The notes: generated from the sequence alone by a model not told the origin. 64,000 nt of DNA from Candidatus Aminicenantes bacterium (GCA_963736255.1 CAVTOI010000002.1:428411-492410); one strand, 5' to 3'; counted from the first letter of the stretch, positions 22,495 to 55,925 are shown. Numbers and translations are program-made.

Positions 22495-22734
22495 CGGTCC
22501 TCCATTCTCGCCCATGGACTTCTTCTTTTCAAGGTCCATCTCCCGATGCCAGGCGATCGTCTTCTCGGCGTGCTCGGGATATCGCTCCTTGCCCCCGCAC
22601 CCCGGAAACCTTGTAGCTGGTTTCCCCCGCCTCCGGCGGGCCCCCCTTCCCTTACGGGGGCTTTGGAGCGAAATCCCTCGCCGCCTCACGACGGACGCGA
22701 GGCACCTGAGATGGAATGCTGGAATACCGGGGTA

Positions 22735-24678
22735 TCAGAGGGCCAGGCGGAAGCCGGTCCGGGCGGTGATCCCCGGCGCCCCGTATCCCCAGACGGTCTC
22801 ATAGCGGGCGTCGAGAATGTTGTCGATGCGGAAGAAGAGCTCGAGTCGCGGACCGACGGGGGCCGTAATGGCGGCACCGAGAAGGACATAACCGGGAAGC
22901 GCGACCGTAGCGTAGGGATAGGCGCTGAAATCCCGGTCGAAGCGCCGGCCGACCCAGAGCGCGCGGGCGGAAAGGTCGAACCGTCCGAAGAGCCTCGCGC
23001 CCGCCTCGGCGGAAAACGTGTCGTGCGGCCTGCGGAGGAGCTCTGTCCCCGCGTCCACGTCGCGGGCCGAGAGCCGGGTGTAGGAGGCAGAGAGGCGCGC
23101 GCCGGCCGCCGGCCGCGCTTCCGCAGAGACCTCGAGGCCCTCCGTCCTGGCCCGGCCGATATTGACGTAGCCGGCGGCGAAGTCGAAATCGACGAGGTCT
23201 CGGAAAGCGTTCGCGAACCAGGTCAGGCCGAGGGCGATGCGGCCTGCAGCGAGGCGCTGCTCGATCCCCGCGTCCCAACCGAGGGCTCGCTCGGGGCGGA
23301 GCAGGGGATTGCCGACCGGGCCGAACGACGTGGCGGGGGCGAAGAGCTGGTAGAGAGCGGGGGACTTGAAGCCTGTCCCGAGCGTAGCCTTGAGGCGCGT
23401 TCCTGTGGCGGCGACGAGATAGGCCGGGGCGACGCGGAAGGTCACGGCGGTCCCGGCGCGGCTGTGATGGTCCGCCCGGACGCCGGCCGTGACGAAGAAC
23501 CGGCCCCAGGCCTCCCAGTGATCGAGAAGATAGATCCCCGCCGACGATGCGCGGGCCGAAGGGAAGCGGGCCTCCGAAGGACCGAAGACGCTTTCCGACT
23601 CGTACTCGGAGCGCCCGGACTCGCTCTCGACTTCCAGCCCCGCCGTGAGGGTGTGGGACGGATGGAGGAAGAGGTTGTTCTGCCAATCGAGCTTGACGAT
23701 ACCGCTCTTGTAGAGGCCCTCATCCCGTTCGGCGGGATGGGACGCGTCGAAGGGGTTGTCGTTCGCGCGCCTCGCTCCGAGCCAGGACAGGGAGACTGTC
23801 CGTTCCCAGCGGCCGCTCCGGTGGAGCCCGCGATACTGTCCGCGGACGAGAAGCGTCCCGTAGTCCTGGACGGCGTTCGGATCGTCCCCGCCGGGCCCGC
23901 CGAAATTGTCGAGCTCGGTCCTGGCGCTCGCGGCCCGGACCGAGAACGACAGGACCGTCGCGGGGCGCGGCGTGAAGCCGAAGCGGGCGGCGAAGCTGAT
24001 GTTGCGATAGCCGTCCTTTTCGGCGTTCCCGGCGTAGGCGGACGAGGCCGCGGAGAGGCCGGCCGTCCGCTCGTGGAAGAGGCCGAGCGAATATTCGGTC
24101 TTCGGCCCGGAGCCGGAGAGCGAGACGTCGGCGGCGAGGGAGCTGAGCGTATCGGCCGACGAGGCCAGCGTGAGCCGGGGCCGGCCGCGGCCGGTCCGGG
24201 TGATGATGTTGATGACGCCGCCGAGCGCGTCCGAGCCATAGAGCAGGCCCTGAGGGCCTCGGAGGATCTCGACCCTGTCGACCTGGCCGAGAGGAAGGTG
24301 GGACACATCGTACGAGCGCGACGGGTTGATCGGGTCGTTGAGCTCGAGCCCGTCGAGAAGGAAGAGCGTGTGCTCGCTGTTGGCGCCGCGTACGGACACC
24401 GAGGAGGCCGCGCCCGGCCCGCCGTTCCGGACCGTAGAGAGGCCGAGAACGGATTCGAGGGCCTCGAGGACGAAGGTCTTGCCTGTGCGGAGGAGCTCCT
24501 CGCCCGTGACCACGGTGATCGAGCTTCCCACCTTCTTTTCGGGGGTTTCGAGCCGGGTGGCGGTGACGACGAGGTCGTGTTTGATGGGCGGCGCCGCCTG
24601 GTCTTGCGTGCCCGGGGCGAAGGACGTCAGCGTCATGAGCGCGGCGAGCGCTGTGAGGGAGATTCTTCTCGATGTCAT
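22735..24678 (-). CDS. btuB: TonB-dependent outer membrane receptor, BtuB-like.
   Basis: Signal peptide, a TonB box-like DLVVTATRLE, the plug motif LRGPQGLLYGSDALGGVINIITR and a beta-barrel. There is a cobalamin riboswitch in the 5' UTR. Confidence 0.8.
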   Translation of the reverse strand: MTSRRISLTALAALMTLTSFAPGTQDQAAPPIKHDLVVTATRLETPEKKVGSSITVVTGEELLRTGKTFVLEALESVLGLSTVRNGGPGAASSVSVRGANSEHTLFLLDGLELNDPINPSRSYDVSHLPLGQVDRVEILRGPQGLLYGSDALGGVINIITRTGRGRPRLTLASSADTLSSLAADVSLSGSGPKTEYSLGLFHERTAGLSAASSAYAGNAEKDGYRNISFAARFGFTPRPATVLSFSVRAASARTELDNFGGPGGDDPNAVQDYGTLLVRGQYRGLHRSGRWERTVSLSWLGARRANDNPFDASHPAERDEGLYKSGIVKLDWQNNLFLHPSHTLTAGLEVESESGRSEYESESVFGPSEARFPSARASSAGIYLLDHWEAWGRFFVTAGVRADHHSRAGTAVTFRVAPAYLVAATGTRLKATLGTGFKSPALYQLFAPATSFGPVGNPLLRPERALGWDAGIEQRLAAGRIALGLTWFANAFRDLVDFDFAAGYVNIGRARTEGLEVSAEARPAAGARLSASYTRLSARDVDAGTELLRRPHDTFSAEAGARLFGRFDLSARALWVGRRFDRDFSAYPYATVALPGYVLLGAAITAPVGPRLELFFRIDNILDARYETVWGYGAPGITARTGFRLAL

Positions 24679-24699
24679 GGCAGGAGCTCCGCAGCCGCC

Positions 24700-24895
24700 C
24701 CCGCCGCTTTTTCGTTCTCCGTCTTCCGCCCGAAGACCGGTCGACCGCGGCTTAAAGAAGGTCTCCTGACTCCCGGATCGTCCTCCTCCCGAGCCTTCCA
24801 GCCTCATGGCCGTGGCGTCTCTCGGGATTCGTCCCCGGTTACAGTAGCGGGGGCTGTGTCCGCATCGGACGGACTTCCCTTCGGAATAAGCCGGG
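24700..24895 (-). promoter_or_regulatory. Cobalamin (B12) riboswitch in the leader of the TonB-dependent receptor.
   Basis: On the mRNA strand: GAAGGGAAGUCCG...GCGGACACAGCCCCCGCUACUGUAACCGGGG...GAGUCAGGAGACCUUC. The B12 box is the complement of 24761-24775. Confidence 0.75.
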
Positions 24896-24902
24896 GAGAA
24901 TT

Positions 24903-25043
24903 ATAGCAGATATGGGGGTCAAACCTATACCTTTTTAGTTTTAGCCCTTAAGATATTCCCCAAAATCGTGGCCTCGAGCGCTCGGCCGCGATTTTGTTGG
25001 TCGCTTCGGGGACTTCGCTTCCCGCCGTAGGTTTGACCCCATC
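24903..25043. repeat. 140-bp MITE/REPIN-like element flanked by 15-16-bp inverted repeats (ATGGGGGTCAAACCTA / TAGGTTTGACCCCAT).
   Basis: The IR core GGGGTCAAACCT is identical to the core of the 31-bp TIRs that flank the Y1 transposase element at 48341..49442. Confidence 0.6.
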
Positions 25044-25516
25044 TTAAATGGGAGGGAGGCTGCCCTGAACCGTCTTCAGATCAGGGCAGCCTCGGGATGG
25101 GAATGGGGGTCTATCGGGAATTATCGAAAAGGAGGTCGAGGCTTTTCATCTTCGTTGCTCATAAGATAGTACGCGGCCGGCAGGCGATCGGTTGCAGCCC
25201 GGGAAGAAGATAAGTAAGGGAGGGCCAGGCAGAGAGGGACAAAAAGCCTATTTACCGATTTTTTTTCCGATCCCCCTCAATGACCATTTTTAATTATACC
25301 ACAAGCCTGAGCGGAATGCAATAGCTTCTCCCGAGTTATCGAAAAATACACCCGGCGGACGCCCAACACGCCCGTTTTGACCTGAAAATGCCGTTCTTCG
25401 CCGGGTTCCCGAAAAACGCGTCCGGGCCGCCGTTTCCCTGGCGGTTTCCCCTGAAAACAGGTATATTGAGGATGGCTCTCCCGACGGCAAAAAGGCTCCA
25501 GAGCGAGGAGAAGGCC

Positions 25517-30403: not shown

Positions 30404-30588
30404 GGCTGTCTCCTTTGCGGACCTCGCCCCGCGCGGCCGGGAGAGGAGGAATGACGAGACCGTTTAGGTATATGGCGCCGTTCCCTGCTGGAGCGTCCGA
30501 TCCGAGCTTATAGAAGGCACGACCTCGCTTGGCGACCTGACTATCGGCTCAAGCCTTCTTGAGAGCGCATGCTATCACAGCGGACGGA

Positions 30589-33552
30589 TCAAGTAAATGG
30601 TCCATCCCTCAGGGCGGAACGAACGGTTTCGGCCATCTCCCGAAGGGAGAAGGGTTTCATCTGGAATCGCCGGATCCCCGCCGCCTGGGCCACCTTCGCG
30701 TCGATGATCTCGCTGAATCCCGTGCATAGAATGATCGGCAGGCCGGGGCGGATACTCAGGATCTTCCTGGCCAATTCCAGGCCTGTGAGGCGGGGCATGG
30801 TCTGGTCGGTGATCACGAGGTCGAAGGCCCCGGGATCCTGACGGAAAAGCGCCAGGGCCACCTGGCCGTCCTTCGTGGCCGTGACCCGATATCCCAGGCG
30901 TTCGAGCATGCGCTTGACGGTCTCGACCTGAATGTCCTCGTCGTCGACGAGCAGGACGCGCTCGTGGCCCGGCTCCGGGGCCGCGGCCTCGGCGGGCGGC
31001 GCGGAATCCTCCGCCCAGACGCGCGGGAAAAAGACGTTGAAGGCCGACCCCTTGCCGGGCTCGGAATAGACCGTGATGGCCCCGCCCTGGTCCTTGACGA
31101 TGCCGTGGACCACGGCCAGGCCCATGCCCGAACCCTCGCCTGGTTTTTTGGTCGTGAAGAACGGATCGAAGGCGCGCTCCAGGATCTCTTTCCTCATGCC
31201 CGTCCCCGTATCCGCGACCGTCAGCCGGAGATACGGCCCGGGCTTGAGATCGGCATTGTGAGCCGCCATATCGGCGTCCACGTCCACGTCGACCAGGCTC
31301 ACTCCGAGCACGCCGCCATTCTCGCGCATGGCGTAAGCGGCGTTGTTGCCCAGGTTCATCACCACCTGGTGGATCCGGGCAGGGTCAGCCAGAACGTAGC
31401 CCGTTTCGGCGCGCAGGTCCTCTTCGATCTGGACCGTGGCCGGCAAAGACGCGCGGAGGAACTTCAACGCCTCCTTCAACACGGGCGTGACCTTGGAAGG
31501 TCTCTTTTCCGTTTCCTTTTGCCGGCTGAAGGCGATGATCTGCTTGACCAGGTCACGGCCGCGTTCCGCCGCCTTGAGGGAGGTTTCAAGGCTCCGGCGG
31601 GCATGAGGGTCCAGGCCGGTGTCGAGGAGGACGAGTTCGGTGTTGATGAAGATGGGATTCAGGATATTGTTGAAATCGTGTGCGATGCCTCCCGCAAGCG
31701 TCCCCAGGGCATCGATCTTCTGCATCTGCCGGAGCTGCTGCTGGACCCGGACTTCCCGGGTCACGTCGCGCTCGACCACCAGGTAGTTGGTAATGGCGCC
31801 CGAGGGGTCCCGGAGAGGGGAAAAACTGATGTCGAGCTCGAACACCTGACCGTCTTTGGTCCGCCGGCTTTGGAGATCAGTCCAAGTATCGCCGCCTCGC
31901 GCCAGCGTCCGGATCTTCTCGCCAAGCGCCGCATTCCCCGTTTCTCCAACCAGAAGATCGAAATAGCGTGTTCCGCGGAGCTCGTTCCTCCCGGATCCGC
32001 TCGTCCTCTCGAACGCCGGGTTGACGTAGGTGATGCTTCCCTCGGCGTCCGTGATGGCGATCCCCACGCCCGTCTGTTCGACGGCCGCGACAAGGCGCAG
32101 GCGCTCGGCGATCTCCGCCCTCAGGCGCTCGTTGGATGCCTCCAGCTCCTCGGTCCGTTCACGCACCCGCCGCTCCAAGGCCCCGGTCAAGCCCTGGAGC
32201 TCCGCGGTCGTTTGCTTCAGCGCTTCTTCAGCCCTTTTCCTCTCGGAGATCTCCTGGCGCAGCTCGGCGCTGGCTCGTTCGGCCTGCTGGCGGGAGGCCA
32301 CGGCGTCGTCCATCAGGTTCAGGGCGGCACGACGGGATTCTTTGAGGGCGACGTTGGCGTTCCGATACAGCGCTTCGCTGGCCCTGAGCCCTTCCTCGGA
32401 TCTCTTGCGCTCGGTGACGTCGATCGAAACGAGGGTGACGCCCGCGATCTCCCCCCCGGCGTTCCTGAGCGGGTCGGCGTGGGTCTCGAAGATCGCTTCG
32501 CCCGCCTCCGTCTTCGAGGCCGCTTCCCATTGAAAGGAGACGCCTTTGGCCAGGATGTCCCGCAGGGAGGCGCGGATGCGTTGCGTTGTCTCCGCGTCGG
32601 TGGTCTGTCCGATGTCCCTGCCGATGAGCTCTTCGGCGCGGAGCCCGCCCTTGGGGTTGAAGACCCAGGTATATTTCAGATCGCGGTCGAGATTGGCCAT
32701 GACGATGGGCGCGTTCTTGAGCACGAGCCGGAACCTCTCGTCGCTCGCGGTCAGCTCGGCCGTTCGCGCCCTGACGAGAGCCTCGAGCTCCTGGCCATGG
32801 CGCTCGCTTTCGTTATAAATCTTGACCACAAAACGATAGGCCGCGATGAGGACGATCCCATAGGCTGCCAGGCGGGCGCCATGCCAGACCCACCAGTCCG
32901 CCGCCCAGACGCTGGAAAACCCGAACAGCAGGCTCGCGATCCCGAAGAGCATCGTATGGCCGGCGAAAACCAGATCCTCGTTCTGGGGTCGGCGCGCATA
33001 CCGTCGGAGGAAGAACACGGTCGCCGCCAGGAATCCCAACCCCCCCAGGGCGTTTGCGGCCTTGACCGCAAGGCCGTATTCATCGCCGATCCAGGGCGCG
33101 GGGAACCATCCGGGCTTGACCCAGACGGCCGCCGCCAAGGCCAGCGCCAGACCGGCGGCGACGAGCGCAAACGCCTGTTTTCGGCGGACCACGAGAACGG
33201 GCACGGGGAACCAGACCAGTGCGAAGAATATCCCGCCCAGGAGCGTCGCCAAATGCCTCAACCACGACCAAGCGGGACCGAGATGGGCTATGCCGTGGGC
33301 CCCGTCGATCAGGCCCATGGCGATGAGGGCCGTCACGACCCAAAACAAATGGGGCGTCGTGTCCTCGTGCCTCAGACGCAGCAGGAGGAGCACGGCCACG
33401 CTCAGGGCGACGGCGGCGCCGGCGATCTCGAGCCCTTCATGCAAGGGTTCTCCGGGATACGGGGTATCTCCGATAAAGATCCGTGCGGCATACCAGGCCA
33501 GCACCGGCAACACGCCGGCAAAAAACACGACGGCGGCGATCTTACGCTTCAT
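30589..33552 (-). CDS. Hybrid sensor histidine kinase with a multi-pass N-terminal membrane domain, PAS domains, a coiled coil, HisKA, HATPase and a C-terminal receiver.
   Basis: [22 protein letters not shown], then TM helices. The H-box is [11 protein letters not shown]. The HATPase region includes DTGTGM and GSGMGLAVV. The REC domain reads VLLVDDE...ITDQTMP. Confidence 0.8.
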
Positions 33553-36500
33553 CCTCGGATTCCAGGCGATAGCGCGGCGGCCGGCCCGCCGACATATCGA
33601 GGCCATTGATCTCCTTTTTCAGCTCGATCATGCGCAGCTCGCGGCCGACGACGACGCGGTTGAAACGCTCCAGCTCCTCGTTGGTCTCCTGCAGCTCCTT
33701 GGCCCGCCGTTCGAGCTCCTCCTCGGCCAGCCTGCGCTCGGTGATGTCGGTCAGCATGGAAACCGTTTTGACCAGGCGGCTGTCCCGATCGAGCACCGGC
33801 GAAGCCGCGGAGATCACCCAAAGGTCCGATCCGTCCTTGCGGCGGAACTTGAACTCCTGGTGAAGCTTCGAGCCGGCCATGATGGCCTCCCTGGTCCTCC
33901 GCACGATGGCTTCCTGGTCCGGGTGCAGGAATTCCGCGGGCTCCCTGCCCACGAGCTCCTCGCGGGAATAGCCCAGCATGTCCGCCATTCTCTGATTGAC
34001 CAGGGTGGTCAGCCGCGCGCCATCGGTGACCCAAATGCCTTCGTTGGCGGTTTCGAAGATGATGCGATACCCTTCTTCGCTCGCCGTGAGCTCCGCCGTG
34101 CGCTCGATGACCCGGCGTTCGAGCGTTTCGTTGACTTCCCTTAACGCGGCCTCCGCCCGCTTGACCTCGGTGACGTCGATGCCCATTTCCAGGATGAGAG
34201 GAGAACCGTCTGCGTCCCGGAAGGGAAAATCGTGAACGTCGTAGTTCCTGCCGTCGGGGCCCACCCACTCCCAGTGGTGGGGCGCGTTCGTCTGCAAGAC
34301 CTTGTAGGTTTCGCAACCCGGGCAGGCGTCGGTCCTGTCGAACAGGAATTCGAAACAGCGCCGGCCGCGGGCTTCCCCGAAGCGTTCCCGGAAGGTGCGA
34401 TTGGCGAAAGGCGCTTTGTAGTCCTTGGTCAGAAGCACGACATAGGCCGGCAGGGTTTCGAGGACGTCGTAAAGCCGTTTCCGCTCGGCCTCGACGGCCT
34501 CGTGGGTCCGGCGGATCTCCGCGGTCTGCTCGTCAACGCGGGCCTCCAATTGCTCGTTGAGGTTACGCAGGGCGTCCTCGGCTGCCTTCCGCTCTGTGAT
34601 GTCGCGCCCGTAGACGTTGGCATACCGGGCCTCGATGACCGGGACGACGGCCACGGAGAACGGGGTCCCGCCAAGGCCCAGGACCTCCTCGAGGGGCCTG
34701 GACTCCGCCATGGCCCGGGCGACCAGCGCCCGCACCTGATCGGGCAGGGGCCGGCCGACCCGGGATTGCCAGCCGGCGGTCTTAGAGGCCGCCGGGTTGA
34801 CGTAGAGCGCGAACCCCTCCGCTGACACGCGCGCGACGGGATTGGGATTCTCCCCCGGCATCCTGGCCAGCCATTCGGCCTGCTCGCGCGCCTCACGCAG
34901 CGCCTCCTCCGACTTCTTGATGTCACAGACGTCGACGAACGTGATGACGACCCCTTCGATCCGGTCGTCCAGCGTCCGGTAGGGTGTGATGCGCCGGATG
35001 TACCAGCGGCCGTCATCCGCCCGGACCTCCTTGGACAGCGGCGCCAGGGCGGCCAGGACGCGCGCCGCGTCGCCGAGCAGGGCCTCGTCGTCGAACCGGC
35101 GGAGGATGTCCGCAATGGGCCGGGCCAGGTCGGTCGGGATCAGGCTGAAAAGCCGCGTGCTGGCCGGCGTGAACCGCTTGACCTTGAGTTCCTTGTCCAG
35201 AAAGACCGTGGCGATGGCCGTGCTCTCGAGGAGGTTCGACAGGTCGTCGTTGAGTCCCTCCAGCTCCTCGACCTTGTCCTGAAGGCGGGCATTGATGGTG
35301 TTGAGCTCCTCGTTCAACGACTGGAGCTCCTCCTTGGAGGTCTCGAGCTCCTCATTGGCGGATTGGAGCTCCTCGTTCGCCGCCATGACCTCCTCGCTGG
35401 AGGCCTTGGATTGATCGTTGGAGCCCTCGAGCTGGGTGATCGTGCTCTGAAGCTCCTCGCGGGTGACCTTCAGCTCGTCCCGGAGCTGTTGGAGATCGTC
35501 TTTCGCGGCGGCGGGACGGCGGGGCTTCTCCGCGGAAAGGGCGCGGTCCTCGAAGGCGATCAGGAGCAAGCCGTCGATCTCGCGGGGGATCGTTAAGGGG
35601 CTGACCGTGGCCACGACGGGGACCGATCTCGAACCGCGCCGGACACGGGCCGTGATCGTAACCGGACGATGGGCCTCGATGCACCTGGCGACGGCAACGT
35701 CAAGCCGGGACCGCAGGCCCTCTCTGGCCATATCGACGACCCGGGTGGTCAGCTCGCCGGCCGGGAAGGTCAGGAAATGCTCGACCGGGCCGTGGACGTA
35801 GAGCACCCGGAGCTGACGGTCGATGATCACGGAGGCCGGGGCAAAGCGGTCCAGGAGGATCTGTTGGGCCGCCGTGGCCAGGCTCTGCCGGGCCGGAGAC
35901 GGCGCCGCGGCGAGGCCGGTCCGCGGCGGCCGGGTCTCACCAGCCGGCCGGAAGGGTATTTCGACGCCGGCCGGACGCCCGACGCCGATCCGGCGGTAGA
36001 TCCGCCATTTCTTGGAGACCGCCTCGAACAGATCGACCCGGTCGCCGACGGTTTCCGCGGAGCCGAGAAAAAGGGAACCCCCTTCGCGCAGGGCGAAGTG
36101 GAACAGGGCGATGACCTTCCGTTGAACGGCTTGGTCCAAATAGATCAGCAGATTGCGGCAGCTGATGAGGTCCAGGCGGGAGAACGGCGGATCGGCGGTC
36201 AGATCCTGCGGGGCGAACACGGTCCTGGCCCGGATATCCTTGATGACTTCGTAACAGCCGTCCCGGCAGACGAAAAAGCGCGCTAGCCTTTCGGGGGAAA
36301 CGCGGCCGGCGAGGCCATCGGCAGGATATCTCCCGGCGCGGGCGGCCGCCAGCGCCTCGGCGTCGGGGTCGGTGGCGAAGATCTGGAAAACGATCGCCTT
36401 GTTCGCGGCTTCGATCCGCTCAGTCAGGAGGATCGCCAGGCCGTAGGCCTCCTCACCCGTCGAGCAGCCCGGGACCCAGGCCCGGATCTCCGATCCCGGC

Positions 36501-36913
36501 GGGGTCTCTTCGACAAGGGGAGCGACGACCTTGTCGTTGAGAGCTTCCCAGGCCTGTGGCTGGCGGAAGAACTCCGTCACGCCGATAAGCAGGTCCTTCT
36601 GCAGGAGGCCGGCTTCCTCCGGGCTCTCTTGCAGGAACCGGGCATACTCGGAGAGCGTCGCGACCTTGTTCAAGGCCATCCTCCGCCGGATCCGCCGGTC
36701 CAGGGTGCTGGACTTGTAGGAATTGAAGTCCTGCCCGCCCTTGGCGCGAAGGATGTCCAGGATGTTCCGAAGGTCGGCGGTCTCTTCGGGAGCCGCCCGC
36801 GGATCGCCGGGCAGGCTCCCGTCCGGCCGATCCGGGGGCTCGTTCCCGGTCGCCGGTCCGCTCATGCCACGAACTGGCTTCGTCCCCGGTGGCCTTTTTC
36901 CGAGCATGTTCAT
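33542..36913 (-). CDS. CheR-type protein-glutamate methyltransferase fused to PAS/coiled-coil sensory domains. There is no kinase domain. It overlaps the downstream hybrid kinase by 11 nt.
   Basis: The CheR domain includes IRAWVPGCSTGEEAYGLAILL and FFRQPQAWEAL. There is a long coiled coil and several PAS domains. The tail reads NRVVVGRELRMIELKKEIN. There is a GGGGAG SD. Confidence 0.75.
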   Translation of the reverse strand: MNMLGKRPPGTKPVRGMSGPATGNEPPDRPDGSLPGDPRAAPEETADLRNILDILRAKGGQDFNSYKSSTLDRRIRRRMALNKVATLSEYARFLQESPEEAGLLQKDLLIGVTEFFRQPQAWEALNDKVVAPLVEETPPGSEIRAWVPGCSTGEEAYGLAILLTERIEAANKAIVFQIFATDPDAEALAAARAGRYPADGLAGRVSPERLARFFVCRDGCYEVIKDIRARTVFAPQDLTADPPFSRLDLISCRNLLIYLDQAVQRKVIALFHFALREGGSLFLGSAETVGDRVDLFEAVSKKWRIYRRIGVGRPAGVEIPFRPAGETRPPRTGLAAAPSPARQSLATAAQQILLDRFAPASVIIDRQLRVLYVHGPVEHFLTFPAGELTTRVVDMAREGLRSRLDVAVARCIEAHRPVTITARVRRGSRSVPVVATVSPLTIPREIDGLLLIAFEDRALSAEKPRRPAAAKDDLQQLRDELKVTREELQSTITQLEGSNDQSKASSEEVMAANEELQSANEELETSKEELQSLNEELNTINARLQDKVEELEGLNDDLSNLLESTAIATVFLDKELKVKRFTPASTRLFSLIPTDLARPIADILRRFDDEALLGDAARVLAALAPLSKEVRADDGRWYIRRITPYRTLDDRIEGVVITFVDVCDIKKSEEALREAREQAEWLARMPGENPNPVARVSAEGFALYVNPAASKTAGWQSRVGRPLPDQVRALVARAMAESRPLEEVLGLGGTPFSVAVVPVIEARYANVYGRDITERKAAEDALRNLNEQLEARVDEQTAEIRRTHEAVEAERKRLYDVLETLPAYVVLLTKDYKAPFANRTFRERFGEARGRRCFEFLFDRTDACPGCETYKVLQTNAPHHWEWVGPDGRNYDVHDFPFRDADGSPLILEMGIDVTEVKRAEAALREVNETLERRVIERTAELTASEEGYRIIFETANEGIWVTDGARLTTLVNQRMADMLGYSREELVGREPAEFLHPDQEAIVRRTREAIMAGSKLHQEFKFRRKDGSDLWVISAASPVLDRDSRLVKTVSMLTDITERRLAEEELERRAKELQETNEELERFNRVVVGRELRMIELKKEINGLDMSAGRPPRYRLESEDEA

Positions 36914-37024
36914 GCGGCACTCCCCACGCCGCTGGAGTTTATGTCATTTCAAAGGCAGGCACAAGAGAGTGTTTTCGCCCGCTCCCGGCCGAAGGCTCTG
37001 CCGCCTCGATCTGAACGCGACCGG

Positions 37025-38163: not shown

Positions 38164-38604
38164 CCGGCCTCACTCGTCCTTCGCTATATAAGGAATATAT
38201 ACCTTTATTTATACGATCCCTATTATACGGCTTCTCTTCCCTCTGGGAAATCATTGACCTTAGCCTGTCCACATCGCAGGCATCTGGGAGGCTGTATGGA
38301 GGCCACGGGCAACAGCGGCGAAGAAGACAGTCGAACCCGACATTGGGAAAGTTTAGCCGGGCAGCGTGACGGACGAGGGCAGTTTCAGGGGAAACCGCCA
38401 AAACGTGTCTGAGCGAGGCGTAGCGGACGCCGAGCGAGTTGTTTTGGCGCCAAGTCCGGCGCACTGAACGGCGTTTTCAAACTTTCCCAGGAGGGAGAGG
38501 CTGTCCTCGAGCCGCTCAGCGGGGCCTCCACACCAGGGCCGGCATTGCCGGACCTCAAGATTTCGGGTATCATAGCCCGCATCAAGCGCTTAGTGAGGAC
38601 ACCG

Positions 38605-40034: not shown

Positions 40035-40301
40035 CCTGGATTATTCACGCCGTCTTGGATCTTCTTGTCTTATGAAAAAGCCGGCGTTTTTATGAATAGC
40101 CCAGGCTAGCCTGGATTATTCACGAGTCGAGGCGGCTGCAGATGCGAGGCGTCAAAGGGTGAGGCTGTACTCCGGGTACTGCGAGCCCTTTGCAACGAAG
40201 CAGATGCGGCCGGATCGGCTTGCCCGAAGGGTAAAAACGCCGTCTTGGATCTTCTTGTCTTATGAAAAAGCCGGCGTTTTTATGAATAGCCCAGGCTAGC
40301 G
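40031..40301. repeat. MITE-like repeat pair between convergent genes. A 63-bp unit occurs twice (40049-40110 and 40238-40300). Imperfect IRs CTAGCCTGGATTATTCA / TGAATAGCCCAGGCTAG flank the units.
   Basis: Exact direct duplication of cgccgtcttggatcttcttgtcttatgaaaaagccggcgtttttatgaatagcccaggctagc. The palindromic GCTAGC ends provide the TAG stops of both neighbouring genes. Confidence 0.6.
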
Positions 40302-47230: not shown

Positions 47231-48343
47231 ATGGACGACTGGCAACGTTTGATGAAGGGCGTTCTCAGGAAACCCGAAGAGATCGCCCGGAAATTCGGGC
47301 TTGACGTCGAGGAGGTCCGCCGGATCGCCAAGGTGTTCAAGATCCAGATCACGCCGTACTATGCGGGCTTGATCAAGGAGCGGGGCGACGCCATGTGGCG
47401 CCAGATGGTCCCCGACCCGGCCGAGCTGAAGGAAGACACAGGGGTGGCAGACCCGCTCGAAGAAGACGCGGATTCGCCCGTTCCGAGCATCGTCCACCGC
47501 TACCCCGACCGCTGCCTGTTCCTCGTGTCGCACAGCTGCGCGTCGTTCTGCCGGTTCTGCACCCGGAAGAGGAAGGTCGGCGACCCGTCGAAGATCCACC
47601 CGCGCTATATCGAGGACGGCATCGAATACATCCGGAGGCACACGGAGCTCCGGGACGTCATCATTTCCGGCGGCGATCCGCTGATGCTCAGCGACCGCCG
47701 GCTTGAGGCTATCATCAAGGCCGTCAGGGGCATTCCCCACATCGAGATCATCCGTATCGGCACGCGCGTGCCGTGCGTCCTGCCGCAGAGGGTCACGGAA
47801 AAGCTCGTGGCCATGCTCAAGAAGTACCACCCGCTCTACGTCAACGTGCATTTCAACCACCCGGACGAGATCACGCCGGAGTCGTCGCGGGCGCTGAACC
47901 TGCTCGCCGACGCGGGGATCCCGCTCGGGAACCAGACCGTGCTCCTCAAGGGGGTCAACGACGACCCGCTGGTCATGCGGCGGCTTATGCAGAAGCTCCT
48001 GGCCGTGCGGGTCCGGCCCTATTACATCTACCAGGCGGACTATGTCTCGGGGACCGAGCACCTCAGGACGACGGTCGAGAAGGGCCTCGAGGTCATGGAG
48101 AGCCTGCGCGGCTGGACGTCCGGGCTGGCGGTGCCCTACTACTGCATCGACGCGCCCGGAGGCGGCGGCAAGATCCCGGTCCTGCCGAAGTACCTGCAGT
48201 CGATCACCGACGAGCAGGTCGTGCTGCGCAATTACGCCGGCGAGCTGTTCATCTACCCGCAGGTCAAGCCCAAGCCGAAGCGCCGGCCCCGGCCCGCGAC
48301 CGCCCCCTGCTACAGCTTCGACGGCGCCCCCCCGATGCCTTAA
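47231..48343 (+). CDS. kamA: Lysine 2,3-aminomutase (KamA family radical SAM).
   Basis: The CASFCRFCTRK cluster motif is present, together with the KamA family signatures (YPDRCLFLVSHSCA..., ISGGDPLM) and a C-terminal Cys. There is an AGGAG SD. The TAA stop lies inside the TIR of the downstream element. Confidence 0.8.
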   Translation: MDDWQRLMKGVLRKPEEIARKFGLDVEEVRRIAKVFKIQITPYYAGLIKERGDAMWRQMVPDPAELKEDTGVADPLEEDADSPVPSIVHRYPDRCLFLVSHSCASFCRFCTRKRKVGDPSKIHPRYIEDGIEYIRRHTELRDVIISGGDPLMLSDRRLEAIIKAVRGIPHIEIIRIGTRVPCVLPQRVTEKLVAMLKKYHPLYVNVHFNHPDEITPESSRALNLLADAGIPLGNQTVLLKGVNDDPLVMRRLMQKLLAVRVRPYYIYQADYVSGTEHLRTTVEKGLEVMESLRGWTSGLAVPYYCIDAPGGGGKIPVLPKYLQSITDEQVVLRNYAGELFIYPQVKPKPKRRPRPATAPCYSFDGAPPMP

Positions 48344-49442
48344 GAAGGGGTCAAACCTTAATTCTTATAATTTTCTGCCGCCGGAAAAGTCCCCGAATAT
48401 CAACGATTCCATTTCGGCGACAGCACGGCGGAGCGGCTCGCTCGAAACGATATCGCCCCTCATCTTCCGGAAGGCAACTGCAACCGCGATAGGGCCGATG
48501 TTAAAGAATTCCCCAATCTCCTTGAGTTTGTAGTTAGTATTCCTATGCGCAATGAAGATGGTCGCCTTTTTAACGAGCCTGTTTGTTGCTCCTAACCTGA
48601 AGACAGCAACAGAATGGATGGCCGATATTTCAGGTCTCTTTACGAGGCTCGGGATTTCGGACACCTCGCTATCGGCGTGTTCAAGCGCCTGTTTAAGGTG
48701 TAATCTGCGGATCTTCTCGATAAATTCGGCGTTACCCAAGATTCCGATCCGCTCCGCTTTGGCGAACTCGGGAAACGAGGACCAGTCCACGCTGGAATTG
48801 AGATATCGACTGTGCTCTGTCCGCATTGCCATCAAATCGCCTCCGAAGCAGCGGACGATCGTTTCGGTTGTGAGCCATGCTGGGGGGTCGATGAGTCCAA
48901 AATATGCCGCGGCACTTGACCATTTGAATTCTTCCGGGCGCTCGGCGAACCCCTTGCGCACGGGATTCCCATGTATGTACATCGTCAATACCCGGGCATA
49001 GGATTCTGTGTCTAATAGTATGGCCTTGAACCGGCCCTGGAAGAGATGCCCGCATCGATCATGTTTGAGGTTGAGATAGATCGAATACGTCGTGTTTATG
49101 AAGTGCATGATCTGAGAGAGATTGCCGACGGGGCACTCCAAAATGAAATGATAGTGGTTCGGCATCAGACAATAAACGTGGAAGTTGGCCGAAAACCTTT
49201 TGTGGGCATCATGAAGAACCTTCAGGAAATAGCATCGATCGTCATCGGAAAGGAAGATAGGCTGCTTCTGGTTCCCTCGGGAATAGACGTGATAAAAAGC
49301 GCCCGGATACTCGATACGGAGATGCCTGGCCATGATAGAGTCCTCGCCGCCGTATGCCTATCTTTTTAAGAGACGCAGAGCGGGAGGAGTTATTCTCTGA
49401 TGATGCGAAATATTATAAGAATTAAGGTTTGACCCCTTCTTA
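48341..49442. mobile_element. 1.1-kb transposable element. It carries a RAYT/IS200-like Y1 transposase gene flanked by perfect 31-bp terminal inverted repeats (TAAGAAGGGGTCAAACCTTAATTCTTATAAT).
   Basis: IR-L is 48341-48371 and IR-R is 49412-49442, and they are exact reverse complements. The same IR core occurs in the MITE-like repeat at 24903-25043. Confidence 0.75.
48365..49333 (-). CDS. HUH Y1 tyrosine transposase (REP-associated / IS200-like TnpA) with a C-terminal DnaA-type HTH domain.
   Basis: The HxH motif is HVYCLMPNHYHFILE. The catalytic-Tyr region reads SYARVLTMYIHGNPVRKG. The C-terminal HTH (KLKEIGEFFNIGPIAVAVAFRKMR) resembles DnaA domain IV. Confidence 0.75.
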   Translation of the reverse strand: MARHLRIEYPGAFYHVYSRGNQKQPIFLSDDDRCYFLKVLHDAHKRFSANFHVYCLMPNHYHFILECPVGNLSQIMHFINTTYSIYLNLKHDRCGHLFQGRFKAILLDTESYARVLTMYIHGNPVRKGFAERPEEFKWSSAAAYFGLIDPPAWLTTETIVRCFGGDLMAMRTEHSRYLNSSVDWSSFPEFAKAERIGILGNAEFIEKIRRLHLKQALEHADSEVSEIPSLVKRPEISAIHSVAVFRLGATNRLVKKATIFIAHRNTNYKLKEIGEFFNIGPIAVAVAFRKMRGDIVSSEPLRRAVAEMESLIFGDFSGGRKL

Positions 49443-51629
49443 GCGGGAGCTAGCCAGGTAGCTGCTGAGGCCGACCGACTTGACGAGGGCCAACGCATCC
49501 GCCCGGTCGACGCCGCGCTTCTGTTTCAGCGATTCGAGGATGCGGATGATGGAGAATGCGACCTCCGCCGTCTGCCCCGCCTCCGCCTGCCGCCCCTTGA
49601 GGTACTCTATCGCATCGTACAGGACCGCGTTCGCTTCGCCGTACGTCACCGGCCCGCGTGCGCCGTTGGCCTTGACCCACTCGGCCGTGCCCAGGACGTC
49701 GTTCACGTGGGATTGGATGAGGAACGTGGCCCGGCCGATGAGCTTGAGGTTGCTCGGGCTGACGTTGGTCATCGTATTGCCGATGACCTTGCCGAGCTTG
49801 GCCATGACCGCCGTCGAATGGGCGTTGAGCAGCATCTTGGCGGCCATCTGTTGCCTGATGCCGAACGGGTCGCCCTCGGCCTTCACGGATACGGGCACGA
49901 CGACGAGCCTCCCGGCCGCGCCCGCCCAGAGTCTCCGGACCCGGCCCGCGATCGCCGCGAACTCCTTCGACGGCTTGTCGGTCAGGAGGATCACGCCTGC
50001 GTCGGCGCCTCCCTCCGCGGCCAGCCTCAGGACCTTGGCGAAGGACGAGCTTGCCTCCTCGAATACGCGCTCTTCCGGCGTCAGTGCGACCAGGACGCAC
50101 AGATCGCCCTTCTTCGGCCCCCGCCCCTCCGTGTTCGCCTTGGACATCGAGAAATCGTAGAGGTCCGCCTGGTCGTCCCCCGCCTTCTTCAGGCTTTCCA
50201 GGGCCGCCCGCCGCAGATAGGGGTCGCCGACCTCCGTCTCGAACGGCCGCCTGTACATCTCCGGATCCAACCCCCGGAAAGGCCGGCCGAGGAAGGCGCG
50301 CCAAGCCTCGGCCTGGTTCGCCGCCTTAGTCCAGACCTGGATCCAGCACTTCCTCCGGGGCTCCTTGACGGTGTCCAGCGGGAAGAGCCGGAAGGTCGGG
50401 CTCCGTTCGGTGCTGTCGATGAAAACGGTGATCAAGCCGTTCTCGGCATAATAGGTCGAGAAGCGTCCGCCCGCGTAGGCCGCGGCCTCGACGTCCGTGA
50501 GGGCCGCCAGCTCCTGGAGGGCCCCTCGCGCGCCTTCCAGGACCCCGCCGAACTCGCCGAGCTTCGCTGCGACCCCGGTCGCTCCCCCCTCGCCCAAGCC
50601 CGCGCTCCGCGTTCCTCCGCCCTGAACCCGAGCCGGGCCATTTCCCGCGCCCCCAGCATCCCGCCCAGGGCCCGCTCCACAGCGGTCTCGACGATCGCCC
50701 CGACGACATAGGTCTCTATCGTCGTCGCCTGCATCCTCGTCGAGCCCGTGATGGACTGCGGCCCCGTCGTCAGGTTGATCTTGGTGATGCCCGGCTCGAG
50801 CAGCACGCTCCGGCTCCGGTCGAACGGCAGCAGCCTGTCGTCCGGGTTGTTGTAGACGAAGTAGAGGCTCTTGCGGCTCTCGGCGGGATCGTACCCCGGC
50901 TCGCCCCGCCACTCGTCGAGCGCAGCCAGCACCGTCCCGATGACCGAGGACGTCTCGCCGCCCTCGGTGACGCAGATGACGACATCGCCCTTCGCGATGC
51001 CCCGGTCGTGGAGCTGGAGCCGCCCGATGAGCTGGAGGTCCTCGAAGCCCTCGAGCGAGCTGATGAGGGCCCGGTCCGCGCCCGTCATCTCGCCGATCAG
51101 GCTCTCCTCGATCGCCGCCCCCGCCGGGATGCGGCCGGCCGCCTTCTTCCAGATCCTCCCGTCCGCCTTGACCTTCCGCCAGAACGGCCGCCAGAACGTG
51201 CTTTCCATCTGCTTGGCCAGCCGTCCCGTCGCCCCGCAGCCGTAGACGTAGATCTTCCTCCCGCCGAGGATGGCCGCTTCGACCGCCTTGGCCGCCTGCT
51301 CGAGCGCTTCCGGCGCCTTGGCGAGCTCGTTCATCCTGGCCAGGATATCGTCGTCGACAGACGACAGCATCTTCAGCCCGGCCAGCGTGTCCTTCTGGAT
51401 GCGCTCGCCGAGATACCACGTCTTCTGATGCCGCTGCTCCGTCAACAGCGTGTGGAGCTGGAACTGGGTCTTGGTCTGGACATAATCGATCGACTCCGCC
51501 GACGGTTCGATCCCGAGGAGTCTGAGCAGCCCGCCGCCCGTTTCGCCGGTCGGCGCGTCCTGACCCGGCATGCCGGCCAGCGCAAAGCATAACAAAACGC
51601 CGGCAATAGCCGCGCCCGCACGGAACATA
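49440..51629 (-). pseudogene. Tandem-SIS protein of the MurQ/GckR family (two MurQ-like etherase/isomerase halves) with an N-terminal signal-peptide-like segment. It is disrupted by several frameshifts.
   Basis: The N-terminal half reads LHTLLTEQRHQKT...YVYGCGATGRLAKQ...ITGSTRMQATT. The C-terminal half reads MAAKMLLNAHSTAVMAKLGKVIGNTMTNVSPSNLKLIGRATFLI. The pieces are spread over ORFs 50432..52531 and 49440..51659. The stop TAA is inside the right TIR of the transposon. Confidence 0.55.
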
Positions 51630-51852
51630 AGGAAAGCTCTCTGAGAGGCGGCGAGGCATGTCGCCCCGAAGCCCCCGTGAGTCAATAAAAAACTCTTCTC
51701 AGATATTTCGCAGAAGTCCGGCTCCGAGTTGCTCCGCCGCACTTCTGCCGGGTCGCTCTCCAGAGTTCGCTTCCCGCCGGCGGGGAAGCGAGGGGCGATA
51801 TCCTGAGCACAGCCTCGCGAGAGATTTCCTTTATGGCGGGCCGACGATTTCA

Positions 51853-55305: not shown

Positions 55306-55611
55306 TCAGGTGACTTTCGGCCCTTCCCCGTTCTCATCTTTCTCCGCGTCCTTGGCGATGTCGTCCGTAAAGCTCTTGACTTCGGATTTGATGCCGTCCA
55401 TGCCGGCCTGGATGTCCTTGCGGATGTCCTTGATCTCCGACGCCTCGATCTCCTCCTCGATGCGGCCTTTGATCTCCTCCGAGGTCTTCTTGAACTCCCG
55501 GAGGGCCTTGCCGACGGTGCGGCCGATCTCGGGCAGCTTCTTGGGACCGAAAACGAGCAGGGCGATGACGAAGATGAGGATGAGTTCCGCCGGTCCGATG
55601 CTCCCGAACAT
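55306..55611 (-). CDS. tatA: Twin-arginine translocase TatA/TatB family protein.
   Basis: MFGSIGPAELILIFVIALLVFGPKKLPEIGRTVGKALREFK. Confidence 0.8.
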   Translation of the reverse strand: MFGSIGPAELILIFVIALLVFGPKKLPEIGRTVGKALREFKKTSEEIKGRIEEEIEASEIKDIRKDIQAGMDGIKSEVKSFTDDIAKDAEKDENGEGPKVT

Positions 55612-55738
55612 AGGCTTCTCGAAGCGGTATTATAGCACGGCCTCACTTGACGGCCAAAGGTCGGTCCTCGAGACGTCTCCTTCTCCGGCGTTTCCCCCAT
55701 CCGTCCTACGGCGGGAAGCGGAGTCCTCGAAGCGACCT

Positions 55739-55797
55739 GCAGAATTGGGGCTGAGCACTCGAAGCCGCAATTCTGCGAAATATCTTGACCAAGATAT
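55739..55797. promoter_or_regulatory. Operator-like palindromes in the tatA-ctpA divergent region.
   Basis: A 9-bp IR GCAGAATTG...CAATTCTGC (55739-55776) is immediately followed by the 8-2-8 palindrome ATATCTTGacCAAGATAT (55780-55797). Confidence 0.45.
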
Positions 55798-55925
55798 CTC
55801 CCAGCACCGCTCCTCCAGGTCATTCCGGAGCGGCGCTGATGGTCGCTCCCGAAAGTCCGCTCCCTGCCGGCCCCCACGCCGTCGCGTCATCGTCCCTCGG
55901 CCCGTTCCCTCCAGGGCAGATCGGC

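Follow-up and report, generated by a model that had tools for sequence, protein, structure and literature searches.

A 131-bp miniature element beside a cobalamin riboswitch in a Candidatus Aminicenantes bacterium is a probable non-autonomous member of the TIRYT/TIRtron family

In a 64,000-nucleotide (nt) stretch of the genome of a Candidatus Aminicenantes bacterium (GCA_963736255.1 CAVTOI010000002.1:428411-492410; hereafter “the window,” meaning this whole stretch), a 131-bp non-coding element separates a terminator-like hairpin from the promoter of a cobalamin riboswitch. Both of its ends carry the 12-nt core GGGGTCAAACCT, which also occurs within the 31-bp terminal inverted repeats (TIRs) that flank a gene for a Y1 transposase-like protein elsewhere in the window. 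The element belongs to a family that is dispersed in multiple copies; in other genomes, the arms of family members co-vary with the TIRs of genes of this kind, and at the site of the element itself members have been gained, lost, and replaced among related genomes. We propose, with a probability of roughly 0.65, that the element is a non-autonomous miniature of the TIRYT/TIRtron family and that a Y1 enzyme of the TIRYT type, by reading the conserved terminus, brings about the gain, loss, and exchange of such units. TIRYTs are genes resembling those of REP-associated tyrosine transposases (RAYTs), with long TIRs in place of repetitive extragenic palindromes (REPs) (Di Nocera, De Gregorio & Rocco 2013, PMC3733652). 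Loci in other genomes are denoted by L numbers.

Extent and termini of the element

The element begins with ATGGGGGTCAAACCTA at position 24912 and ends with TAGGTTTGACCCCAT at position 25042. The first-pass annotation had placed a 140-bp element at 24903-25043; an element is indeed present there, its size is 131 bp, and positions 24903-24911 lie outside it. Its parts are as follows.

24912-25042 (131 bp), no strand assigned: whole miniature element, non-coding, between the terminator-like hairpin and the riboswitch promoter
24915-24927, plus strand: left terminal inverted repeat, GGGGTCAAACCTA
24928-24949, plus strand: AT-rich sub-terminal part of the left arm (TACCTTTTTAGTTTTAGCCC...)
24950-25029, minus strand: M80 module of about 80 nt, fused to the right core at the fixed junction CCTA/CGGC (nhmmer E = 1e-14; alignment A3)
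24961-24996 (arms 24961-24973 and 24984-24996), no strand assigned: inner hairpin of M80
25028-25040, minus strand: right terminal inverted repeat, GGGGTCAAACCTA, continued outward by TAGAATT (TTAAGAT on the minus strand), which matches the outer TAAGA of the Y1-gene TIR

The perfect inverted repeat of the element comprises 13 nt (GGGGTCAAACCTA), with the arms at 24915-24927 and 25028-25040 standing 100 nt apart; the outer “AT” pairs only with a 1-nt bulge because the left arm has five G residues and the right arm four. The left arm runs on as TATACCTTTTTAGTTTT, an arm type that also occurs at both ends of L113:5845-5940 and in L051, L034, L086, and L098. The element is thus a composite in which the two 13-nt termini are combined with an AT-rich TIR arm and with a separate repeat of approximately 80 nt, M80: one arm is a normal AT-rich TIR arm, and the other is the 13-nt core fused to M80.

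The core GGGGTCAAACCT occurs at exactly four sites in the window (24915 and 48347 on the plus strand, 25029 and 49425 on the minus strand), which form two inverted pairs; the expected number is 0.25, and none of 100 shuffled sequences reached four. A relaxed pattern, GGGGTCANNYCT, found no sites in the window beyond these four. The second pair sits inside the 31-bp TIRs at 48341 and 49442, in agreement with the earlier claim that the element and these TIRs have a 12-nt core in common. The right arm of the element also has the outer TAAGA of the Y1-gene TIRs (TTAAGATGGGG versus TTAAGAAGGGG). It is scarcely credible that chance alone produced an inverted repeat in this AT-rich spacer, without any relation to the Y1 unit. 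Perfect pairing does extend over just 13 bp, and the interior of the element has no relationship to that unit; however, shuffling did not yield the four cores, homologous doublets exist at no fewer than 115 loci, and indel polymorphism occurs at or adjoining the element boundaries.

No target-site duplication was found at the element (flanks GCAGATAT and ATCTTAAA) or around approximately 130 relatives. The “AT” on both sides was considered as such a duplication and rejected, being palindromic and missing from L215 and other copies. The lack of a duplication bears on the idea of an ordinary miniature inverted-repeat transposable element (MITE) derived from a DDE-type insertion sequence with the same TIRs. 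In being 80-140 bp long, non-coding, TIR-bounded, and intergenic, often beside promoters or terminators, DDE-type MITEs such as Nezha, RUP, NEMIS/Correia, and ERIC do resemble the present element, but here there is neither a target-site duplication nor a DDE parent, and the unit that resembles a parent carries a gene for a Y1 enzyme. In a search that was not exhaustive over genomes, all genes that these termini were found to enclose were Y1/HUH genes, and 1.4 Mb of fetched DNA showed no DDE gene with such ends. A DDE-type origin is therefore very improbable.

The Y1 gene is a resident TIRYT

The second pair of cores belongs to the following unit.

48365-49333, minus strand: TIRYT gene (322 amino acids) with an N-terminal HUH/Y1 domain (NHYH, YIHGNP) and a C-terminal DnaA-domain-IV-like helix-turn-helix
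48341-48371, plus strand: left 31-bp TIR, TAAGAAGGGGTCAAACCTTAATTCTTATAAT, enclosing the TIRYT stop codon (48365-48367)
49412-49442, minus strand: right 31-bp TIR, the outer TAA of which is the stop codon of the convergent gene at 49440-51659 (minus strand)

The protein matched the Pfam family Y1_Tnp (8e-10) and scored 74.8 bits against the NCBIfam model REP_Tyr_transpos, under its cut-off of 80; the residues H60-Y61-H62 and Y119-x-H-x-N-P were invariant across 27 homologues. When a profile of the TIRYT homologues (A2) was compared with the PDB, it matched DnaA domain IV chains (3pvp, E = 0.0017; 8btg, 2z4r, and 1j1v) over residues of approximately 250-316; the same profile also matched E. coli TnpA-REP, although weakly. 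Pfam returned no domain for the C-terminal half, even at E = 10. Exact-sequence look-ups with the TIRYT protein yielded no match. With its RAYT-like HUH/Y1 domain, TIRs, and DnaA-like C-terminus, the gene is a TIRYT rather than a REP-flanked RAYT.

The gene has a large SIS-like gene on one side and a lysine-2,3-aminomutase-like gene on the other, and this arrangement is kept in relatives at protein identities of 90% (L001), 71% (L002-L007), and 56% (L126-L128). The left TIR of L002 is identical over 31 of 31 nt, and the neighboring non-coding DNA could not be aligned by eye. The TIRYT is thus a fixed resident gene, and its TIR is under selection, being nearly invariant while the adjacent non-coding DNA has diverged. 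The outer TAA of the left TIR (48341-48343) is the stop codon of the aminomutase-like gene, and the right TIR likewise supplies a stop codon at 49440-49442; three lineages use the TAA of TAAGAAGGGG as the stop codon of the aminomutase gene. Among 80 metagenomic homologues of the TIRYT (32-58% identity), many had TIRs beginning with GGGGTCA[AG]N[CT]CT on both sides of the gene. A search of plasmids yielded distant homologues only, the best of which, from Legionella, had the related TIR GGAGGGTCAGGCC. Many Logan contigs of approximately 1.09-1.11 kb that carry TIRYT homologues were considered as a sign of multiple copies, and this was rejected, as longer contigs show one syntenic locus; the short contigs were discounted because an assembly graph with k = 31 should presumably break at a perfect 31-bp inverted repeat.

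A dispersed family of doublets whose arms match TIRYT TIRs

Species-representative genomes were scanned for inverted doublets with the pattern GGGGTCAAACCT-N87-117-AGGTTTGACCCC. At least 115 loci in at least 58 assemblies were found, with at least 6-7 loci in the richest assemblies. In 130 minimal doublets among the matches listed, the median inverted repeat was 24 nt, versus 13 nt in the window copy. The 12-nt terminus was constant among the doublets listed, and the sub-terminal arm was lineage-specific.

Desulfobacterales: arm type ...CCTTGATTTGTGATTAAT
Two metagenome-assembled genomes (MAGs) labeled Actinomycetota: arm type ...CCTGAGATCTTGCAT
One Verrucomicrobiota MAG: arm type ...CCTTGACATTCGACATT
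Aminicenantes: several arm types

Complete chromosomes of Desulfospira and Opitutales were among the matches. Relatives had several doublets per assembly, including clusters with the arm orders left-left-right (L-L-R) and left-right-right (L-R-R). Full-length relatives of the composite element also occurred at non-orthologous sites, for example in L051 (83% over 133 nt).

In two lineages, the arms of the doublets matched the TIRs of the TIRYT gene. In USST_maxbin.083, the TIRYT TIRs are GGGGTCAAACCTTTAATTTTTTAATTTT and GGGGTCAAACCTTTAAAAGTTTAATTTT, and the doublets (L011, L042, L067, and L121) have arms, TTTAATTTTTTAATTT or TTTAAAAGTTTAAT, that are identical to them. The TIRYT of the ANAN16-1/RBG_16_63_14 lineage has TTAATTCTTATAAT as its TIR, and its TTAAATCTTATAAT arm recurs in the doublet at the btuB site. 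This agreement is correlative and drawn from sequences, the same sort of evidence that tied REPs to RAYTs. In addition, the exact arm of the window TIRYT was present in doublets of RBG_19FT_COMBO_65_30 and POMEDNA-B01 (L041, L044, L050, L076, L082, L083, and L113), and the TIRs of more distant TIRYTs equaled the arms of other doublets: that of L134 equaled the ACGCGATGCCAG arms, and that of L150 the arms of L102 and L111.

Within the doublet loci themselves, the only RAYT homologue was a distant Y1 gene of 176 amino acids in L012 (L012:5073-6009, from a Desulfatibia MAG). It is flanked by another inverted repeat, GGGGTCTGACC, and a GGGGTCAAACCT doublet lies 100 nt upstream of it, so that two related end types stand side by side. 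At L217/L218:1915-1945, a truncated extra left end, GATGGGGTCAAA, directly precedes AAAAGAAGGGGTCAAATC, and L-L-R and L-R-R orders were seen in many other loci (e.g., L022, L073, and L091). Such extra or clustered arms suggest insertion next to or into resident copies. As a descriptive observation only, since spurious open reading frames (ORFs) in high-GC DNA are included, 40% of the ends of approximately 139 elements abut the stop codon of an inbound ORF, with peaks 6 nt ahead of the core (-6) and 11-12 nt inside it (+11/+12).

Gain, loss, and replacement at the btuB site

The neighbors of the element are those named in the first-pass annotation: a cobalamin riboswitch (24739-24903, minus strand; 90.5 bits) ahead of a TonB-dependent receptor gene (btuB) on one side, and a pyridoxal phosphate-dependent decarboxylase gene on the plus strand on the other.

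24739-24908, minus strand: cobalamin riboswitch together with its extended -10 box TGCTATAAT (24908-24900), which abuts the element
25056-25093, no strand assigned: hairpin bordering the other side of the element, conserved by compensatory changes in relatives

Spacers between btuB and the decarboxylase gene were sampled by means of decarboxylase homologues, irrespective of the repeat, and three loci from the doublet scan were added (alignment A7). The alleles are listed below, with the identity of the decarboxylase protein to that of the window unless marked nt.

L215, about 98% nt (same species): same 131-bp element, near-identical
L212, 93%: 81-bp doublet with ACCCATCGTT arms
L213/L214, 92%: empty, ATTATAGCAGAAAGGGGGAATAAAAACAGGAGGGAGG
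L216, 88%: 142-bp doublet of another type
L217/L218, 87%: 112-bp doublet with TIRYT-type arms and a truncated extra left end
L060/L118, about 80% nt: ACTTTTCATCACTTT type
L121, about 78% nt: TTTAATTTTTTAATTT type with a third module

Presence/absence polymorphism, which had been put forward as a check on the element, was thus borne out by the empty L213/L214 and by the other family members in L212, L216, L217, L060/L118, and L121. Across related genomes, the site holds six family members (the window type and five others) and one empty allele; it is an unusual hot spot of insertion. Because these types are mostly dispersed subfamilies that are found elsewhere, they are not diverged versions of one ancestral copy. 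The occupation of the same site by different members was also observed in L023 versus L083, L035 versus L086/L114, and L010/L109 versus L072. In every genome sampled, the site sits between the hairpin with compensatory changes and the TGCTATAAT box, which is conserved in L060, L118, L213, and L215. The empty allele keeps AGAAA+GGGGG on the left, and on the right it can be aligned with the flanking sequence found after CCCC-N-TCTT in the filled alleles. This single case suggests that insertion took place 3′ of a target resembling AAGA-N-GGGG or, alternatively, that a footprint was left. L029:3565-3648, compared with L064, was considered as a second empty site and rejected, as a further 63-nt difference leaves the boundaries undefined.

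The position of the doublet invites the alternative that it is a cis-acting element of the host for btuB or the decarboxylase gene, for example an operator pair for the helix-turn-helix of the TIRYT, an UP element or -35 substitute, or an insulator or terminator between the divergent units. A doublet abuts the -10 box at the same place in 8 of 10 sampled relatives, the core contains TTGACC (17 nt from TAGAAT in L121), and the TIRYT does carry a domain of a DNA-binding type. However, the riboswitch and the -10 box are intact in the empty allele of L213/L214, the interiors of the doublets are unrelated between relatives, and elsewhere the same family lies mostly at the 3′ ends of genes. Promoter geometry is not constant either: TTGACC was rejected as the -35 box of btuB, because it stands 11-12 nt from the -10 box (TATAAT) in the window, L060, and L118 and 17 nt from it in L121 only, and a consensus scan called no sigma-70 promoter that uses TTGACC. 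We consider a host regulatory role improbable.

Some further features of this spacer were observed. A 12-codon ORF on the minus strand (25111-25149, MKSLDLLFDNSR) precedes the hairpin at 25056-25093 and is conserved, with a length of 11-12 codons, in L060 and L121; a T-run follows the hairpin in the empty allele, so that it resembles a terminator or leader peptide arrangement. The TGCTATAAT box also occurs at 55628-55636 (minus strand), ahead of a gene starting at 55611 (minus strand), and neither of the two sites has a recognizable -35 box.

The M80 module

A search with nhmmer identified 38 copies of M80 in 1.43 Mb of fetched DNA, 26 inside core doublets and 12 without cores. The 26 doublet-borne copies always had the junction CCTA/CGGC, combined with at least five different far arms. 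Compensatory double changes were found in 11 of the 12 pairs of the M80 hairpin, and 94.5% of the cells were paired; the covariation score was 0.518 versus 0.181 in shuffled alignments (0 of 500 reached it), and slid controls scored ≤0.10. At E ≤ 1, the sole Rfam match in 24600-25450 was the cobalamin riboswitch, and the M80 copies were covered only by chance-level matches (E > 1). Copies that lack the GGGGTCAAACCT termini are also present in the window.

51701-51779, minus strand: M80 copy approximately 40 nt upstream of a gene start
55707-55869 (55707-55786, plus strand; 55791-55869, minus strand): tail-to-tail M80 pair, REPIN-like, missing from the orthologous spacer of L001

In these M80 units, the loop GGAGCGACTCGGA is conserved and there are about six GGA motifs per unit.

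These data allow a different account, in which M80 is the active or selected REP-like repeat of another enzyme and inserts next to the ...CCTA of existing doublets, so that the cores are a landing pad and the 131-bp unit is passive. The 12 core-less copies, three of them in the window and some arranged as tail-to-tail REPIN-like pairs, are in its favor, as are the absence of the window pair from L001, the preservation of the hairpin by compensatory changes, and the constancy of the CCTA/CGGC junction with at least five far arms and, once, with another core (L033). Read on the opposite strand, the junction is ...CCGCCGTAG, which resembles the GTAG tag of REPs. However, units of core, M80, and far arm recur whole at non-orthologous sites (L051, L086, and L095), the core-less copies have no consistent 5′ flank, no second Y1 gene was seen in the window, and the units that vary at the btuB site are whole, core-bounded, and mostly without M80. 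This account is therefore unlikely.

Folding of the element and comparison with known systems

The first-pass annotation had regarded the element as a non-autonomous REP doublet, or REPIN, and had proposed folding as a check for the long hairpin expected of REPINs. No such hairpin was obtained; only a terminal stem of 13-14 bp and a separate inner hairpin of 13 bp form. Folded as DNA, the whole element had a minimum free energy of -25.7 kcal/mol (z = -3.0 versus shuffled sequences), and the RNA folds gave z = -4.3 and -3.8. This better-than-shuffled folding is due to the terminal stem plus the M80 hairpin and not to one long hairpin of the REPIN type. The four single arms, folded as single-stranded DNA, were no more stable than shuffled sequences (-0.7 to -2.7 kcal/mol; z from -0.8 to +1.2) and are therefore TIRs, not REPs. 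A conserved GTAG/CGTC tag was not common to the arms: the right arm has GTAGGTTTGACCCC, the left TATAGG, and other subfamilies CAAGG, TCAGG, or TTAAGG. Of the original classification, there remains a dispersed non-coding repeat bearing the termini of the Y1-gene TIRs; its identity as a REP or REPIN does not hold, as the arms are not palindromes.

The likeness to the REPIN/RAYT system (Bertels & Rainey 2011, PMC3116915; Nunvar 2010; E. coli TnpA-REP, PDB 4er8) is nevertheless considerable. In both, the Y1 gene is single-copy and vertically inherited, inverted copies of a short sequence that is also dispersed in the genome stand on either side of it, and inverted doublets act as a unit without target-site duplication. 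In contrast to that system, the arms described here are not imperfect palindromes and lack a conserved GTAG/CGTC tag, the element forms no single long hairpin, its abundance is far lower, and the Y1 protein has an additional DNA-binding domain. With IS200/IS605 elements and their palindrome-associated miniature derivatives (PATEs), the present system has in common the HUH/Y1 catalytic domain and insertion, free of duplication, next to a short target resembling the element end, the latter being hinted at here by AGAAAGGGGG in the empty allele. However, the ends of IS200/IS605 are asymmetric sub-terminal hairpins without TIRs, whereas the present ends are symmetric TIRs of 13-31 bp without hairpins, and IS200/IS605 genes are multi-copy, whereas the TIRYT gene here is syntenic and single-copy.

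The closest match is the TIRtron. Published TIRYT TIRs have the motif GGGGWSAS in common, and copies of the TIRs that occur as singles, dimers, and clusters were named TIRtrons, their families being “moderately abundant” (PMC3733652). The same group corresponds to TnpA-Y1 subclass 2.1, with Bac_DnaA_C/HTH-like tails in subclass 2.1.2 (Quentin et al. 2018, PMC6006769), and to RAYT Group 1, with approximately 12 occurrences of flanking 16-mers per replicon (Bertels et al. 2017, PMC5581495). The present system agrees with these descriptions in its RAYT-like HUH/Y1 gene of low copy number, the C-terminal DnaA_C/HTH-like domain, the long non-palindromic TIRs beginning with GGGG-T-C-A, and the dispersal of the TIR sequence as dimers and clusters in moderate copy number. 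The window terminus, GGGGTCAA, agrees with GGGGWSAS at 7 of 8 positions, and TIRYT homologues in L144, L148, L162, L166, and L180 carry GGGGTCAG, which fits the motif in full. The kind of element is thus already known, TIRtron TIR dimers having been described but hardly studied, and the present one is a new member in an undescribed host clade: Aminicenantes and their relatives are absent from the published descriptions. It differs further in that the dimer is asymmetric and includes a second repeat, M80. The fusion with a second hairpin repeat, the repeated use of a single site by six subfamilies, and a 12-nt terminus that does not vary among assemblies labeled as different phyla appear to be unreported in a thin TIRYT literature; a full-text literature search for the core motif returned only chance matches to primers.

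Proposed mechanism and its strength

The conserved terminus (AAGA-N-)GGGGTCAAACCT is present at both ends of the element and is the same as the TIR ends around RAYT-like Y1 genes with a DnaA-like domain. In the mechanism that we favor, a TIRYT-type HUH/Y1 enzyme would recognize these termini, with AAGAAGGGGTCAAACCT and TAAGAAGGGGTCAAACCTTAATTC as candidate substrate sequences. Such units would be moved or exchanged without target-site duplication and would insert beside an A/G-rich target resembling AAGA-N-GGGG, as a rule in the gap that separates a terminator or stop codon from the following promoter. The window copy would have landed with the terminator-like hairpin on one side and the extended -10 promoter of the riboswitch of btuB on the other, probably an insertion-tolerant position, and its matching TIRYT partner would have the TIR GGGGTCAAACCTATACCTTTTTAG or an M80-type arm. 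The enzyme-substrate relation and the cleavage positions are what we infer here.

Several points weigh against this proposal. The pattern of the doublet scan itself fixed the lengths of the elements at 111-141 bp, and some MAG labels (“uncultured Eubacteriales”) are doubtful because the flanks are >80% identical to Aminicenantes MAGs. Only one doublet occurs in the 64-kb window, none occurs in the other unbiased flanks of TIRYT loci, and the copy number in the source genome is probably only in the tens. The element boundaries are uncertain because AGAAAGGGGG is still present to the left of the site in the sole clean empty allele. The arms of the window copy (TATACCTTTTTAG... and the M80 arm) agree with the window TIR, TTAATTCTTATAAT, in the 12-nt core and, on one side, in the outer TAAGA but otherwise differ from it; the partner of this copy may be a different TIRYT paralogue, or there may be none. 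To our knowledge, neither a transposition intermediate nor enzyme activity is known for any TIRYT, and we know of no worked-out mechanism for a Y1 enzyme acting on symmetric TIRs. The low density of doublets does fit the “moderately abundant” TIR families and the approximately 12 16-mers per replicon given for Group 1 (PMC3733652, PMC5581495). We rate at rather less than even the chance that the TIRYT at 48-49 kb, 23 kb away, acts on this particular copy, because the arms agree only in the core.

A more specific version of the mechanism can be put forward tentatively, and we regard it as doubtful: the GGGGTCAAACCT termini may define a site-specific, cassette-like turnover, in which the TIRYT would insert or exchange units 3′ of an AAGA-N-GGGG target that mimics the outer end, so that one “slot” is refilled by different subfamilies. 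The basis for this is the six element types and the one empty allele that has AGAAAGGGGG but lacks CCCC-N-TCTT. A conserved protein domain that reads the 12-nt terminus would then account for its conservation across phyla, and unrelated hairpin repeats such as M80 might hitch-hike by fusing to the terminus.

Other repeats and variable segments of the window

Two direct repeats of 48 nt (tcttcttgtcttatgaaaaagccggcgtttttatgaatagcccaggctag) surround a module of approximately 140 nt at 40060-40300, and this module is also found in the btuB-site doublet of L121 and, in L126, within the TIRYT unit, where it lies between the end of the gene and the right TIR. An intergenic segment of approximately 215 bp at 22520-22733 is missing from the 98%-identical strain L215; as 22565-22690 matches L070:3419-3546 and L040:258-367 at 85-87%, it is another small dispersed repeat with presence/absence polymorphism. 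A 6.6-kb segment (30442-37023), also missing from L215, encodes a hybrid sensor histidine kinase with a receiver domain (30589-33606, minus strand) and a CheR-PAS protein (33542-36913, minus strand) and is therefore a strain-variable signaling module. Finally, approximately 200 nt of non-coding DNA at 38314-38517 match L124:5788-5991 at 86%, and an M80 copy stands beside the orthologous region in L002/L003.

Implications for TIRYT biology

TIRYT proteins (RAYT Group 1, subclass 2.1) form the largest RAYT group and have no assigned function, and the literature doubts that their DNA-binding domain reads the TIRs. The material described here amounts to a natural experiment, combining a syntenic gene with an over-conserved TIR, doublets with matching arms, and one site that is empty or filled in six ways. 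Because such elements sit against promoters and stop codons, they can be mistaken for regulatory motifs or structured RNAs. The locus and its relatives define candidate substrates and junctions for biochemistry, and a cassette-like turnover at these termini, if true, would provide the first mechanistic handle on this group.

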